Notes under the pieces: model-generated
The model's input: the letters and a program-made list of their open reading frames with translations, nothing else
What the model was told of the DNA's origin: nothing
Database searches by the model: none
In this document: piece by piece, positions 69 to 5,113 of the stretch
Position numbering within the stretch: the stretch's first letter is position 1
How the letters are laid out: each line of letters opens with the position of its first letter
Origin: Cyanobacteria bacterium UBA9226
GTDB taxonomy: Bacteria; Cyanobacteriota; Cyanobacteriia; Cyanobacteriales; Coleofasciculaceae
Length of the DNA stretch: 13,500 nucleotides
Reading direction: 5' to 3'
NCBI GenBank assembly: GCA_003520045.1
Contig: DOVO01000260.1
Coordinates: 510 to 14,009, forward strand
Translations under genes and position numbers: made by a program

Positions 69-1322
69 TTAGTCATTAGCCATTAGCACTTCCACCAACT
101 TATCAATATCTTCAAAATTGCTAAAATAATGAAGGCAAGCACGAATGCAATCTGGATCCCGGAGAGTGCGCAACAAAAAGCCTTGTTCCTCCAAAGATTT
201 GACTAATTGATGAGATGATTTGCCATTAGTTAAGACAAAGGAAACTAGGCCAGATTGGGGTGGTGAAGTTAATAAACAGCGGACTGATTTTACCTCAGAT
301 AAACGCTGCCACAGATACTTACTCAGTTGACAAATTTGCTGGTAACGAGCTTCTCCAGTGCCCCATGATTGATGAAGTGCGATTGCGGCTTGCACTCCCT
401 TATACAAAGGATAGGCTGAAGTCGCCACTTCAAAACGTCGGGCATCAGGTTGCCAACCAATCGGTTGTCCGACTTTATCTACAATAATACCGCGCCAACC
501 AATAAAGGTAGGATTAAGTTCTTCTAGTACTTCAGGTTTGATATACAAACCACCAATGCCTCCTGGTCCGCACCACCATTTGTGACATGTAAAAGCATAG
601 AAATCTACTTCTAATTCTGTTAAGTTTAATGGCAAAAGTCCGACAGATTGGGCTGCATCCACTAAAATTTTTACAGGTTGACTATGAGGAGAGTAATCGC
701 GACAAGCTTTGACTATTTCTGCTAATGGTAAAACTTGTCCTGTATTCCATAAAACATGACTCAATACTACTAATTTGGTGCTAGGTTGGAGATGTTGGAG
801 AATGACTTCTGTGGGATTTCCTTCATTCAAAGTTGCCATAATTGGACAAAAAGAGAATTCCACTTCAAACCGTTGTGCAATTTCTTGGACTGTGGCAATG
901 ATACCAGGATGTTCGCAATCAGTGAGGAGAATGCGATCGCCTTTTTGCCAGTTAATTCCCCACAAGGCAATATTACAGCCAACTGTGACATCTTCGGTGA
1001 GGGCGATTGTTTCTTTGGATACTCCTATTTCTGAGGCAATTGCACCTCGGGTAAGATTAGCTTCTGCGATTACCCAATCATTTACTTTACCAGAGAAAGG
1101 TCCGGCTTCCTGAATATAGTGATAGGCTTTTTGAATAGCGGTGATAGATTCTTGTGGTAGAGGACCTTGACCGCCAAAATTAAAATATCTTTTGTTGGCT
1201 AAGGCTGGGAATTTCTGTCGGTATTGGGCAATTGATAGGGATGGATTGGTAATGCTCGTCATGGCAGTAATTGGGAAGATATAGCAATCCTTATTTTGCA
1301 CTAAATATTGGTCAATCTCCAA
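69..1322 (-). CDS. Class-V aminotransferase-fold PLP-dependent enzyme (cysteine desulfurase / isopenicillin-N epimerase-like)
   Basis: The 417-aa ORF carries the PLP-lysine motif FTCHKWWCGPGGIGGLYIKPE, as in SufS/NifS-type enzymes. Its C-terminal motif RACLHYFSNFEDIDKLVEVL resembles the SufS/CefD tail. The N-terminal QYRQKFPAL...YFNFGGQGPLP is typical of the family. An alternative internal start at 1262 (MTSITNP...) is possible, and AGGAA lies 6 nt upstream of the 1322 start. Confidence 0.85.
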   Translation of the reverse strand: MEIDQYLVQNKDCYIFPITAMTSITNPSLSIAQYRQKFPALANKRYFNFGGQGPLPQESITAIQKAYHYIQEAGPFSGKVNDWVIAEANLTRGAIASEIGVSKETIALTEDVTVGCNIALWGINWQKGDRILLTDCEHPGIIATVQEIAQRFEVEFSFCPIMATLNEGNPTEVILQHLQPSTKLVVLSHVLWNTGQVLPLAEIVKACRDYSPHSQPVKILVDAAQSVGLLPLNLTELEVDFYAFTCHKWWCGPGGIGGLYIKPEVLEELNPTFIGWRGIIVDKVGQPIGWQPDARRFEVATSAYPLYKGVQAAIALHQSWGTGEARYQQICQLSKYLWQRLSEVKSVRCLLTSPPQSGLVSFVLTNGKSSHQLVKSLEEQGFLLRTLRDPDCIRACLHYFSNFEDIDKLVEVLMAND

Positions 1323-1674
1323 TTCTGTATTCCTGAGAGCCTAAAGTTATATAAAATACTCAGTATCTGGAACCGATCGCATTTATAAATTGAAACCCAG
1401 GATCTATTTCTCGAAGGCATGAGGGGTCATACCCCTCTTGTGTCATAAATAATTAACTGATATTAAATACTTATTAAGTGCAGGAGCTTTTCGTTAGCTG
1501 TGCCATTATTACCTGTTAGATATAGAAAGCTAATCAGGTGGAAAAAAGAGATAGAGTTTTCAGCATTTTTGGCTATTTCAGATTAAGTTTTGTCACCTAA
1601 TTTTTTGGTCGTATTCCGGTACGTCCACTAGATTACTATCGGTAAATGAGAAAAGTTTTTCTGAATTGGAGTAA
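1323..1674. promoter_or_regulatory. Divergent promoter region between the class-V aminotransferase gene (-) and the TDO-like gene (+)
   Basis: This is a 352-bp AT-rich non-coding spacer between divergent starts. It contains the small hairpin GAGGGGT-CAT-ACCCCTC at 1422-1438. No specific -10/-35 calls are made. Confidence 0.35.
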
Positions 1675-2457
1675 GTGCTTATGAATCGAGAGCAATTCTA
1701 TGCAACCATGGCAGGGAAAGGGACATTAGATTACGAAATCTACCTCAATACTCAAACCCTTCTCTCATGTCAAAAAGATTTTGACGATTTTTGTAACCAA
1801 GATGAACTTCAGTTTCAGATAGTCCATCAGTCTGAAGAACTTTGGATGAAACTAATCGCCTATACTCTCCTTAACATTGATGAGTATATACAAGATGAGA
1901 AAACAAATCTGGTATTAACTCTCTTTAATCGAGTTCATCGGATTCAAAAAATATTAATCGATCAATTGCCAATCCTGGAAACAATGTCACCCAAGGATTA
2001 CCAAGAAATTCGTGCCAACTTAGGCAATGGTAGCGGACAGGAATCTCCAGGTTTTCGTACTTTAATGAAAATGTACAAACCTCTCTGGCAATCCTTTAAA
2101 ACCTGTTACTTAGATCGACACCAATTGAATTTAGAGCAAATTTACAATACTGAGTATTCCCATTGTGATGCTTACATGGTTGCCGAATCATTAGCTGAAT
2201 ATGATGAGTTATTCCAAAAATTCCGATACTATCATATTCAGCTTATTTATCGTACCATTGGGATGGGTGCAAATTCTCTCAAAGGACGTTCAGTAGAGCT
2301 ATTGAGAGAAGGAATGCAGAGTAAATTTTTCCCTGAACTTTGGGAAATTAGACATAAAATGACCAATAATTGGGGTAAAGAATACGGTCAAATTAGAGAT
2401 TCTCTCGGTCAAAATTTAGAAACATCCCAGCAAGAAAAAGTAATGGTTGAAGTGTGA
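1675..2457 (+). CDS. kynA: Tryptophan 2,3-dioxygenase (TDO)-like heme dioxygenase
   Basis: The 260-aa ORF has the TDO N-terminal signature LDYEIYLNTQTLLSCQ followed by IVHQSEELWMKLI, with the distal His in the HQxxELWxK block. A proximal His lies in FRYYHIQLIYRTIG. GGAG sits 6-7 nt upstream of the ATG. The stop overlaps the next gene's GTG start (GTGA). Confidence 0.8.
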   Translation: MLMNREQFYATMAGKGTLDYEIYLNTQTLLSCQKDFDDFCNQDELQFQIVHQSEELWMKLIAYTLLNIDEYIQDEKTNLVLTLFNRVHRIQKILIDQLPILETMSPKDYQEIRANLGNGSGQESPGFRTLMKMYKPLWQSFKTCYLDRHQLNLEQIYNTEYSHCDAYMVAESLAEYDELFQKFRYYHIQLIYRTIGMGANSLKGRSVELLREGMQSKFFPELWEIRHKMTNNWGKEYGQIRDSLGQNLETSQQEKVMVEV

Positions 2458-3590
2458 ATAAACAGGATTTTTTCATTCCCAATGGCATCTATCTCTTAAA
2501 TCATTCCGTAGGATGTCTCCCGCGCACAACTGCCTTCGCGAAGGAAGAGTTTTTCGAGATGTGGAAATTGAAAGGGGGTGAAGCGTGGGGAGAATGGCTG
2601 AGTTTGCTAGACGGATTTTGCCACTCTCTTGCCACATTACTCAATGGACATCCCGATGAGTTTTGCCCCCAGACTAATTTGTCTTCAGCTATCTCGAAAA
2701 TTTTGCTGTCTCTTCCTCTCCGTCGAGACAGAAATAAAATCTTAATTTCTGAAATGGATTTTCCCTCAATGGGATTTGCTATTTCTCAGATGAAAAGAAT
2801 GGGATATCAGCTTGAAGTAATCCCTGCAAAAAATGGCAGGTTGTCTCTGGAAAGCTGGAAAAAGTATCTCAAACCAGATGTGGAATTGGCATTGATTACC
2901 CATGTTATTTATGGGAATAGTTTCCTCAATCGTGTCCAAGATATCCTTGACTATGCCAAGGCAGAAGGGATTATTACGGTGGTGGATATTGCCCAATCGG
3001 TTGGGGTTGTACCTATTAATCTCCGGCAATGGAATGGAGACTTTGTAATTGGTTCCTGTATTAAGTGGTTATGTGGGGGAGCAGGTGCAGGATTTATGTG
3101 GGTAAATTCTGAGAAAGTTACCAATTTTCAACCGATGGATGTAGGGTGGTTTTCTCATGAAAATCCCTTTGAATTTGAGATTGATAATTTTCGCTATGCC
3201 CAAACTGCGAAACGGTTTTGGGGTGGTACTCCTTCTGTTTTACCTTTTGCGATCGCGAAATTAAGTATTGATACAATCAATCGTATCAGTGTCAATCGCA
3301 TCCGACAACACAACCAAAGGCTAACACAACGTCTGATTGAGGTGGCTGTGGCGCAAAACTTGAAAGTCTTGACTCCTTTAGATTCTAGCCAACGTGGGGG
3401 GACAGTTGTAATTGCGTTTCCCAATCCCATGGAGGCTTATCAAAGATTCAAGGAAGCAAACATTCTTATAGATATGAGACCTAATTTTGGTCTCCGCTTC
3501 TCGCCTCACATCTATAATGATGAGGCAGAAATCGATCGAATTCTTGATTTGCTAACCAGCGATTGCCACTTATTACCAATTGCGTCCTAA
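2454..3590 (+). CDS. kynU: Kynureninase-family PLP-dependent hydrolase (class V fold)
   Basis: The 378-aa ORF contains DFVIGSCIKWLCGGAGAGFMWV, matching the kynureninase PLP-lysine block (DFAxGCxYKYLNGGPG..FxWV). N-terminal IYLLNHSVGCLP...EWLSLLDGFCHSLATLLNG matches the kynureninase IYLDGNSLG...W...LA.LIG pattern. The GTG start overlaps the stop of the TDO-like gene, indicating translational coupling. Confidence 0.78.
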   Translation: MNKQDFFIPNGIYLLNHSVGCLPRTTAFAKEEFFEMWKLKGGEAWGEWLSLLDGFCHSLATLLNGHPDEFCPQTNLSSAISKILLSLPLRRDRNKILISEMDFPSMGFAISQMKRMGYQLEVIPAKNGRLSLESWKKYLKPDVELALITHVIYGNSFLNRVQDILDYAKAEGIITVVDIAQSVGVVPINLRQWNGDFVIGSCIKWLCGGAGAGFMWVNSEKVTNFQPMDVGWFSHENPFEFEIDNFRYAQTAKRFWGGTPSVLPFAIAKLSIDTINRISVNRIRQHNQRLTQRLIEVAVAQNLKVLTPLDSSQRGGTVVIAFPNPMEAYQRFKEANILIDMRPNFGLRFSPHIYNDEAEIDRILDLLTSDCHLLPIAS

Positions 3591-3671: not shown

Positions 3672-3690
3672 CTATCAACTATCAACTATT
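3672..3690. repeat. Short heptamer tandem repeat CTATCAA x ~2.5 abutting the stop of the REC-HK gene
   Basis: Sequence ctatcaactatcaactatt is visible directly. This is an STRR-like heptamer. Confidence 0.5.
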
Positions 3691-5113
3691 ATTGGCTAAT
3701 TGGAATTTCAATGATAAACTCACTTCCTCTACCAAATTCACTATTAAATGATAATTTACCTTGGTGCTTTTCCACAATTATTTGATAGCTAATTGTCAAT
3801 CCCAAGCCCGTACCGGAGCCAACAGGTTTTGTCGTAAAAAATGCGTCAAATAGTCTCCTTTGGACATCTTCTGTCATCCCCAATCCATTATCGCTAATAG
3901 AGATGGTTATGCGATTATTATCAACGACATCAGTTTTAATCTTAATTGTAGGAATGGGACAAAGATCCAAGTCGCAAGTCTGATTTTTCAACTCAGAATC
4001 TCTTTCCTGAAGTAGGACACACGAAGCAACAGATAAACTCCTCCTTTCCTCAATATTTTTATTATCCATTCCCGATTTCTTAATTTTATCCTCTAGCGCA
4101 TCAATAGCATTAACCAAAATATTCATAAATACTTGGTTAATTTGACCTGCATTACATCTGACTTTAGGTAAGTCACCGTATTCTTTAATTGCATAAATTT
4201 CGGGCTTTTTACCTTTAGCTTTGAGGCGATGGTGCAATAGTAAAAGCGTGCTATCTATCCCTTCATGAATATCAGTTAATTTCCGTTGGGCTTCATCAAT
4301 ATGGCAGAAATTTTTTAGTAATAACACAATTTGGCAAATTCGTTCCGCACCTACCTCCATCGATTTCAGCATTTTTGGTAAGTCTTCTTCTAAAAATTCT
4401 AAATCTAATTCCTCAATTTTATCATTAATTTCTGGTGCAGAAGTGCCGTAGGTTTTTTGATATAGTTCAATTAGTTCTAAGATTTGTTGAGTATATTGCT
4501 TGGTAAGAGAAAGATTGCTATAAATAAAGTTGAGCGGGTTGTTAATTTCGTGAGCTACACCTGCTACCATCTGACCGATACTTGACATTTTATCGGCTTG
4601 AAATAGTTGGGTTTGAGTTTTTTGTAACTTTTTTAATGTCTCTTCAAGTTCTAAGGTTCTTTGCCTTTCTTTGGCTTGGGATCGCAACAATTCTTCATTT
4701 TGTTTTTCCAGTTGCTTTTGCAGATTTCTTAGGGTTAAATGGGTTTTGACTCGACACAATACCTCTGTGGGTTGAATCGGTTTGGTAATGTAATCAACTG
4801 CCCCCACATTAAACCCCGTAACTTTATCTCCTGTATCGCACAGCGCTGTCATAAAAATTACAGGAATATCTTGAGTTGCTTGGTTGGCTTTTAATAAGCT
4901 ACAGGTTTGAAAGCCATCAATTCCCGGCATCATCACATCTAGCAAAATTAGATCTGGCTTACTATATTCTGCTTGCTGAATGGCACTCTCACCATCTAGC
5001 GCCACCAAAACCTTAAATCCCGCATCTGTTAAATACTCGAAGATTAACCCTAAATTGGTGGGATTGTCATCAACGATTAAGATTTTGCTTGTTTCATTGC
5101 TTTCCACAGTCAT
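3689..5113 (-). CDS. Hybrid two-component protein: N-terminal response-regulator receiver fused to histidine kinase (REC-HisKA-HATPase_c)
   Basis: The 474-aa ORF has REC motifs ILIVDDNPTN and LILLDVMMPGIDGF. It then has a coiled-coil linker, the H-box VAGVAHEINNPLNFI, the N-box NILVNAIDAL, the G1 box ISISDNGLGMT and G2 PVGSGTGLGLTIS. Confidence 0.9.
   Translation of the reverse strand: MTVESNETSKILIVDDNPTNLGLIFEYLTDAGFKVLVALDGESAIQQAEYSKPDLILLDVMMPGIDGFQTCSLLKANQATQDIPVIFMTALCDTGDKVTGFNVGAVDYITKPIQPTEVLCRVKTHLTLRNLQKQLEKQNEELLRSQAKERQRTLELEETLKKLQKTQTQLFQADKMSSIGQMVAGVAHEINNPLNFIYSNLSLTKQYTQQILELIELYQKTYGTSAPEINDKIEELDLEFLEEDLPKMLKSMEVGAERICQIVLLLKNFCHIDEAQRKLTDIHEGIDSTLLLLHHRLKAKGKKPEIYAIKEYGDLPKVRCNAGQINQVFMNILVNAIDALEDKIKKSGMDNKNIEERRSLSVASCVLLQERDSELKNQTCDLDLCPIPTIKIKTDVVDNNRITISISDNGLGMTEDVQRRLFDAFFTTKPVGSGTGLGLTISYQIIVEKHQGKLSFNSEFGRGSEFIIEIPISQ

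Follow-up and report, generated by a model that had tools for sequence, protein, structure and literature searches.

Which reactions does a cyanobacterium encode when a gene for a tryptophan-oxidizing heme enzyme runs directly into a gene for a kynureninase-like enzyme, with no formamidase gene beside them? The question is raised by a 13,500-nucleotide stretch of contig DOVO01000260.1 (assembly GCA_003520045.1, positions 510 to 14,009) from Cyanobacteria bacterium UBA9226—hereafter the window—in which a compact heme protein of the tryptophan 2,3-dioxygenase (TDO) family is encoded immediately before a pyridoxal phosphate (PLP) enzyme resembling kynureninase, here called KYNU-like. A preliminary description made from the sequence had recognized this pair; its observation is confirmed, and its interpretation is partly supported. 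We report that the pair, termed the cassette below, constitutes a two-gene unit in its own right, with members in several phyla. We give an even chance to the proposal that it would form a self-contained variant of a kynurenine-type route, leading from tryptophan to L-alanine and anthranilate or N-formylanthranilate.

According to this proposal, the compact heme protein would bind L-tryptophan in a TDO-type pocket and use O2 to oxygenate the C2-C3 bond of the indole, with N-formylkynurenine (NFK) as the most likely product. The PLP enzyme would then cleave the bond between C-beta and C-gamma of NFK, or of kynurenine after deformylation, to give L-alanine together with anthranilate or N-formylanthranilate, both ortho-substituted aromatic acids. 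Deformylation could be carried out by an enzyme encoded elsewhere, or could follow the C-beta/C-gamma cleavage; the substrate, both products, and the order of deformylation are predictions drawn from sequence comparison. Kynureninase itself is recorded as acting on formylkynurenine.

The case for sequential action begins with gene pairing. Loci from a metagenome scan with the PLP family and loci collected beforehand came to 87 with a KYNU-like gene, of which 73 had enough upstream sequence. A TDO-superfamily heme gene lies directly 5' of the KYNU-like gene in 70 of these 73. The upstream gene encodes a short TDO in 21 loci, including every PLP homologue at least 54% identical to the window protein; in the other 49 it encodes a PrnB-family protein of about 391 residues (PF08933, 592 bits) that matches the SO4414 'sIDO' structures 1ZEE and 2NWB (E = 1.9e-153). 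The junction between the two genes is tight in homologous loci too: called genes overlap by as much as 14 nt or stand up to 32 nt apart. In a neighbour-joining tree the PLP proteins divide cleanly into two clades by heme-partner type. One of the three exceptions to the pairing is a frameshifted copy of a PrnB-type gene: in Kineobactrum salinum (CP048711.1; locus L006, 6806-8004) the gene 5' of the KYNU-like gene is apparently split into two open reading frames (ORFs) and is uncalled; either pseudogenization or a sequencing error may account for this.

Natural fusions point in the same direction. An exhaustive search without profiles brought up 253 clusters at 50% identity (E <= 1e-30). A 767-residue fusion of a PrnB-family protein to a KYNU-like protein (P0248) belongs to a 315-member cluster that includes Candidatus Thioglobus, and such fusions are common in marine Gammaproteobacteria. 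A 650-residue protein joins relatives of the short TDO and of the KYNU-like protein, and a 666-residue protein joins a KYNU-like relative, 31% identical to the window PLP protein, to a domain of isatin-hydrolase-B type (4J0N at E = 2e-137). Plasmid relatives of the fused KYNU-like protein were also considered and added little; they fall in a clade further removed and have no heme partner. A further side branch is P0353, a 997-residue protein from a JGI metagenome that combines a tryptophan dimethylallyltransferase, a heme-oxygenase-like di-iron domain (PF14518), and a kynureninase-like relative; this looks like another use of the PLP family, probably a biosynthetic one. Taken together, pairing, overlap, and fusions suggest a PLP enzyme that acts directly on what the heme enzyme produces.

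A close parallel to the cassette in gene order is offered by the SO4414-type systems. In these, an SO4414-type (PrnB/DUF1864) gene almost always stands directly 5' of a KYNU-like gene and often overlaps it, with locus L124 (6802-7977) and 48 other loci as instances; the arrangement presumably also holds in Shewanella oneidensis, where we take the kynureninase-like SO4413 to follow SO4414. The PLP partner belongs to the same family as that of the window, to which it is 43-51% identical. What differs is the heme partner, a protein of about 390 residues from an IDO/PrnB-like clade of the superfamily. Our literature search found no published function for the SO4414/sIDO/DUF1864 family.

In the window, the GTGA overlap described previously is real. 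The heme gene ends in GTG (2452-2454) TGA (2455-2457), and the in-frame stop at 2448-2450 leaves GTG 2454 as the first possible start of the PLP reading frame; the overlap implies that the two genes are probably translationally coupled. The 5' boundary of the heme gene needs revision: the reading frame 1675-2457 and its family stand, but ATG 1681 is most likely the true start rather than GTG 1675, given the spacing of a GGAG motif upstream of it and the N-termini of the homologues, 21 of 21 of which begin with M-[ND]-R-[EDAQS] at this position when aligned. The promoter of the cassette presumably lies in the intergenic region 1323-1680; no match to a sigma-70-like consensus was found there, promoter and terminator scans of the window were uninformative, and a scan of the window for Rfam families returned none.

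The membership of the heme protein in the TDO family is clear. It scores 102.4 bits against the Pfam family Trp_dioxygenase (PF03301), above the gathering threshold of 34.9, as the earlier assignment of the 1675-2457 product had led one to expect, and its best sequence match in the Protein Data Bank (PDB) is TDO of Xanthomonas campestris (XcTDO, 2NW7; E = 2.4e-21, 79.7 bits). Distal His55 and proximal His240 of XcTDO correspond to H49 and H185 of the window protein (numbered from ATG 1681), both invariant in 27 members of the subfamily. The carboxylate clamp Tyr113/Arg117 is found as Y107/R111; Phe51, Leu120, Ser124, and Gly125 as F45, L114, S118, and G119; and Tyr24, Tyr27, and Leu28, which are contributed by the neighbouring subunit, as Y18, Y21, and L22—identical in every case. 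The mapped heme- and tryptophan-contact residues are invariant across 22 to 27 short-TDO members from four phyla. Because the heme pocket keeps all L-Trp-recognizing residues, there is no sign of the modified substrate that had been suggested for the pair.

The same alignment sets the protein apart from full-length TDO. It consists of two ungapped blocks, between which a 23-residue linker replaces XcTDO residues 134-205, so that the window protein is about 50 residues shorter; its 258 residues fall below the 280-300 or so of the full-length bacterial architecture. At the position of the TDO block GTGGSSG it reads GANSLKG, as the preliminary description had noted and the alignment to TDO bears out; the GTGGS(SG) signature is thus missing, and the loop S199-L-K-G-R203 (SLKGR) that stands in its place is invariant in the subfamily. 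The position of TDO Thr254, which binds the substrate ammonium group, is taken by Ser199 if judged by spacing from the proximal histidine, or by Leu200 if judged by analogy with MarE. Members of the subfamily are about 245 residues long, are 63-86% identical among cyanobacteria, Acidobacteriota, Chloroflexi-type metagenome-assembled genomes (MAGs), and Shewanella algae, and are encoded in at least 578 species genomes.

Compactness and loop both recall MarE, the heme oxygenase that forms a 2-oxindole in maremycin biosynthesis (9CA3/8VYY). MarE carries SLGGR at the position of TDO GTGGS and lacks some TDO helices (PMC11904535). The window protein is likewise compact and without some of these helices, and shares with MarE the S-L-x-G-R loop—SLKGR differs from SLGGR by a single substitution, Gly to Lys—as well as the distal His55 and the arginine carboxylate clamp. 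The overall similarity is nevertheless weaker than to TDO: 8VYY and 9CA3 score 35.9 and 35.6 bits, as against 79.7 bits for XcTDO. Where MarE has Leu114 and a DATG lid loop, the window protein has Tyr107 and NGSG, both TDO-like; the loop stands 14 residues from the proximal histidine in the window protein and in TDO but 30 in MarE; and the maremycin-type neighbours of MarE are absent beside the window gene. On these comparisons the heme protein reads as a hybrid, in which a TDO-type substrate pocket and xxSG loop occur alongside a JK loop of MarE type and a similarly compact build; overall it is nearer to TDO than to MarE. By sequence score it does not count as an equivalog of bacterial TDO.

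A MarE-like loop was considered as proof of mono-oxygenation and rejected, as loops of this type yield mainly NFK-type products. MarE is mainly a dioxygenase when no ascorbate is present, and human TDO in which GTGGS is changed to SLGGS still forms about 95% NFK (PMC12312684). The SL-type JK loop modulates the outcome and does not abolish dioxygenation (PMC12312684). Since both MarE and the SLGGS variant of human TDO still dioxygenate, the SLKGR loop is compatible with NFK formation by the window protein.

For the PLP protein, whose length of 378 residues had been given correctly, the evidence points to the neighbourhood of kynureninase. It scores 103.9 bits against PF00266 and 41.6 bits against PF22580 (KYNU_C), above the cut-off of 27. 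Its top NCBIfam match is kynureninase (TIGR01814, 106.6 bits, residues 6-368), which is thus the best full-length match for 2454-3590, as had been anticipated, and its best PDB sequence match is Pseudomonas fluorescens kynureninase (Pf; 1QZ9, E = 1.3e-27). An AlphaFold2 (AF2) model of the protein reached a predicted local distance difference test (pLDDT) score of 91. In Foldseek searches this model gave TM-scores of 0.88-0.91, with root-mean-square deviations of 2.3-2.4 A, to the kynureninases 1QZ9, 2HZP, 3E9K, and 7S3V, as against 0.81-0.85 to SufS-type enzymes. In kynureninase, Lys227 is the PLP lysine, Asp201 contacts the pyridine nitrogen, Phe129 stacks, and Arg375 binds the substrate carboxylate; these residues, together with Ser36 and Trp64, correspond to K204, D178, F103, R348, S18, and W45 of the window protein. 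All six, along with Trp256 (Pf numbering), are invariant in 19 KYNU-like members, as are the kynureninase-type motifs GWFSH, RFWGGTPS, and KWLCGGPG.

In outline, then, the cassette is like the kynA/kynU pathway (2NW7, 1QZ9): a heme tryptophan oxygenase gene is followed by a gene for a PLP-dependent C-beta/C-gamma hydrolase, with the TDO heme- and Trp-contact residues kept in one protein and the kynureninase Lys, Asp, Ser, Arg, and Trp in the other. Several observations, however, weigh against a kynurenine-type route. The heme protein scores 125.8 bits against the NCBIfam equivalog model TIGR03036 (cut-off 390.7), in two separate stretches, and the PLP protein misses the 246.4-bit equivalog cut-off of TIGR01814; with both scores under half of the respective cut-offs, neither protein would be an ordinary kynA or kynU product, and the earlier suspicion of non-canonical tryptophan catabolism was a fair one. 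Two active-site residues that are present in both solved kynureninases are missing from the PLP protein. Tyr226 (human Tyr275), which precedes the PLP lysine and is strongly important for turnover, is replaced by I203, and Asp132 (human Asp168) of the FP(S/T)D motif by M106 (DFPS-M-GF); in 19 of 19 aligned members these positions hold Ile or Val and Met, Ile, Ala, or Val, respectively. The family also reads DIAQS where kynureninase reads DLAHS. Because these three features all differ and the equivalog cut-off is missed, the KYNU-like family is, to judge from sequence, a sister of kynureninase and not kynureninase by the equivalog standard.

Other points on the same side come from genes and genomes. 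No KynB-type formamidase lies beside the cassette in any of about 90 loci, and the only hydrolase that recurs near related cassettes is of isatin-hydrolase type—a further departure from the kynA-kynB-kynU arrangement. In the window itself no PF04199-type formamidase was detected (tblastn with an isatin hydrolase/KynB-family query, E > 0.4), in agreement with the earlier statement that none is adjacent. In most Acidobacteriota the short TDO has no KYNU-like neighbour. Forouhar and colleagues reportedly found, in 2007, no tryptophan dioxygenase activity for SO4414. Finally, an AF2 model of the heme protein, built from a 27-sequence alignment, reached a pLDDT of only 57.8 and was set aside for fold search and loop register; the poor model is explained by the alignment being too uniform (mean column identity 76%).

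The isatin-hydrolase-type genes deserve closer attention, since they carry the main alternative. Pyrinomonadaceae-type loci contain a four-gene operon of short TDO, KYNU-like, O-methyltransferase, and PF04199 cyclase genes (L005, L090-L093, L095, and L096; the contig of L094 ends inside the methyltransferase gene). The PF04199 gene, which in L005 occupies 10272-11051, was tried as the missing kynB and rejected: its product reaches 34-35 bits against the 223-bit cut-off of TIGR03035, and matches isatin hydrolase A (5NNB) at E = 1.6e-97 as against about 1e-5 for kynurenine formamidases. It also carries the motifs HxGTHxDxPxH, WXW, and GLAS, which are hallmarks of isatin hydrolases (PMC6117287). 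Further copies are found in L103, at 3 kb from a PrnB-type and KYNU-like pair (60% identity), and in L051, at 5 kb from a short TDO (62% identity); two other loci with isatin hydrolase homologues contain clusters resembling indole or indole-3-acetic acid (IAA) catabolism. The characterized enzymes LaIHA, LaIHB, and RsIHA (5NNB, 4J0N, 5NMP) hydrolyse isatin. Their homologues recur in related cassettes, but no isatin hydrolase gene is found in the window or in other cyanobacterial loci.

These genes open a second route from tryptophan, which we consider possible though doubtful. The heme enzyme would add both oxygen atoms while leaving the ring intact, giving dioxindolylalanine (3-hydroxy-2-oxindol-3-yl-alanine, an isomer of NFK), and the PLP enzyme would release isatin and L-alanine by a retro-aldol cleavage; isatin would go on to isatinate where an isatin hydrolase is encoded, and would be the endpoint in the window. 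Such a route would account at once for the isatin hydrolase partner, for the absence of Tyr226 and Asp132 (no carbonyl-hydration step would be needed in a retro-aldol cleavage), and for the sufficiency of two genes, since no formamidase would be required to complete the chemistry. Kynureninase has retro-aldol activity on gamma-hydroxy substrates. The fourth gene of the Pyrinomonadaceae-type operon, the copies in L103 and L051, the fusion with an isatin-hydrolase-B-type domain, and the indole- or IAA-like clusters around other family members all fit, and the SLKGR loop resembles that of MarE, whose side product is 3-hydroxy-2-oxindole, +32 Da (PMC12312684). The association with isatin hydrolase, however, comes from only about three independent lineages, none of them cyanobacterial, and the fused KYNU-like relative is a remote one. 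The loop argument is countered by the mainly NFK-type products of MarE and mutated human TDO, and the remainder of the heme pocket is TDO-like, with Tyr113 and Ser124-Gly125 kept where MarE has Leu114 and DATG. The wider claim, that the window and the SO4414/SO4413-type cassettes together represent an undescribed two-enzyme route from tryptophan to isatin with isatin hydrolase as an optional third step, we regard as unlikely.

Two other readings are poorly supported. The preliminary description had suggested a tailoring pair for a modified tryptophan in a secondary-metabolite, siderophore, or chromophore pathway, and there is something to be said for it: both enzymes are atypical, a small-molecule O-methyltransferase follows the pair in Pyrinomonadaceae, MarE with its similar loop is biosynthetic, and P0353 ties a distant relative to a tryptophan-prenylating domain. 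Yet no nonribosomal peptide synthetase (NRPS), polyketide synthase (PKS), prenyltransferase, or other biosynthetic gene occurs in the window or in the approximately 90 related loci, and from one genome to the next the flanks are unrelated. The 63-86% identity of the heme protein across phyla would imply a housekeeping-like constraint rather than pathway-specific tailoring, and the complete set of L-Trp-recognizing residues tells against a modified substrate; the siderophore or secondary-metabolite setting is thus without support, and we consider tailoring very improbable. More improbable still is a PLP protein unlinked to the heme product, a cysteine desulfurase, C-S lyase, or aminotransferase that happens to share the operon. 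Its second NCBIfam match is indeed SufS (TIGR01979, 92 bits), the best Foldseek E-value belongs to a Thermococcus cysteine desulfurase, and DIAQS resembles class-V desulfurases rather than kynureninase. The SufS score, however, is far short of the 475-bit cut-off, and the highest TM-scores are to kynureninases. Desulfurases have His before the PLP lysine, as in the class-V gene of the window (CHKW), whereas the KYNU-like family has Ile or Val; the RGGT region, which aligns with the end of the class-V domain and may or may not correspond to the desulfurase persulfide loop, contains no cysteine. The pairing in 70 of 73 loci and the fusions with tryptophan-oxidizing heme proteins argue for sequential action.

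Gene context in the relatives looks catabolic rather than biosynthetic and speaks for the kynurenine-type route. A Trp/Tyr permease gene lies directly 3' of the cassette in L170 and L111, and an amino-acid permease gene lies between a PLP gene and the short TDO gene in L051. A divergent regulator of the Lrp/AsnC class, to which KynR belongs, is present in up to 29 loci, often 5' of an SO4414-type pair. In L103 an alanine dehydrogenase gene (9147-10256, minus strand) is convergent and directly after the KYNU-like gene; this single instance fits alanine as a product. About 13 Acidobacteriota loci, probably from related lineages, contain within 10 kb a cluster with a 761-residue FAD_binding_3 plus Oxidored_FMN protein, an architecture that we take to be that of 2-aminobenzoyl-CoA monooxygenase/reductase.

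The stand-alone short TDO genes of Acidobacteriota have surroundings of their own. Clustering of their neighbourhoods returned glycosyltransferase, YdjC, flavin-reductase, and F420-related neighbours and no clear pathway. In about 40 loci a convergent Flavin_Reduct gene (PF01613) lies 30-120 nt past the short TDO (L027 10761-11300, minus strand, for example); its product might conceivably keep the heme reduced. CofD and luciferase-like (F420-type) genes also lie nearby in those loci. A Gemmatimonadales MAG presents a different arrangement (L051, 3882-10735). Its plus strand carries a distant class-V/KYNU_C-like PLP gene, a bicupin gene, the amino-acid permease gene, and the short TDO gene; the isatin-hydrolase-type gene is on the minus strand, and a gene for an indolepyruvate-oxidoreductase-like thiamine pyrophosphate (TPP) enzyme lies upstream.

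The features of the window are collected in Table 1; four ORFs were identified by Pfam, and the hybrid kinase and enolase by eye.

Table 1. Positions of the cassette and of its neighbours in the 13,500-nucleotide window.
Feature	Coordinates	Strand	Basis or remark
Class-V PLP gene	69-1322	-	PF00266, E = 3.9e-44
Intergenic region, 358 nt	1323-1680		Between cassette and divergent class-V gene
GGAG, Shine-Dalgarno-like motif	1668-1671	+	9 nt 5' of ATG 1681, read from sequence
Short TDO heme gene, 258-residue product	1681-2457 (mechanical ORF from GTG 1675)	+	PF03301
GTGA overlap	2454-2457	+	GTG start 2454-2456 of PLP gene over TGA stop 2455-2457 of heme gene
KYNU-like PLP gene, T clade, SO4413-type, 378-residue product	2454-3590	+	PF00266, PF22580, TIGR01814
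Response-regulator/histidine kinase gene	3689-5113	-	
Large PAS hybrid kinase gene, 1079 residues	5428-8667	-	Recognized by eye
Major-vault-protein homologue, 881 residues	8811-11456	-	Pfam
Enolase gene	12044-13345	+	Recognized by eye

Outside the cassette, little of this arrangement recurs. The flanks are unrelated among Nostocales, Chloroflexi, Gemmatimonadota, Acidobacteriota, and Gammaproteobacteria, and for this reason the class-V gene, though it exists and is divergent as described earlier, does not belong to the unit: it was considered as a third member and rejected, as its place next to the cassette is confined to the contig of the source organism (L008) and is not seen in other Nostocales or other phyla. 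Its product is SufS/CsdA-like, far below the cut-offs of those families, with the motif CHKWWCGPGG. Two tandem sensor genes are convergent with the cassette and are not conserved beside it elsewhere. The first encodes a receiver-HisKA-HATPase protein in which the HATPase match covers 150 residues against a 111-position model, suggesting an insertion; the product of the second has, by eye, PAS-type repeats, a proline/threonine-rich insert, and a C-terminal receiver. Beyond them the cyanobacterial contig carries a homologue of the eukaryotic major vault protein (MVP), with Vault repeats (PF01505, E = 2.6e-68), Vault_2/3/4 matches, and an MVP shoulder domain.

Automatic annotation names the two cassette genes variously as 'TDO family protein', 'class-V aminotransferase', 'kynureninase', or 'selenocysteine lyase', and under such inconsistent names the cassette either passes for a standard kynurenine pathway or goes unnoticed. 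The families are known, but the subfamilies, the near-obligate pairing, and the link to isatin hydrolase are not described in the searchable literature, where we found no account of the cassette or of the pairing of PrnB with kynureninase. The PLP family almost never occurs without a TDO-superfamily heme partner, which is either a compact TDO or of SO4414 type, and this near-obligate pairing makes both protein families directly testable. The invariant SLKGR loop offers a natural test case for the recent claim that the choice between mono- and dioxygenation in heme aromatic oxygenases is steered by this loop (PMC12312684). Should the cassette yield anthranilate or N-formylanthranilate, it would be a minimal, formamidase-independent kynurenine route that spans cyanobacteria, Acidobacteriota, Chloroflexi, and marine Gammaproteobacteria. 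Should isatin be the product instead, the cassette would represent a new branch of tryptophan metabolism yielding a bioactive signalling molecule—a direct enzymatic source of bacterial isatin that bypasses free indole, and a function for the orphan structural-genomics protein 'sIDO'.

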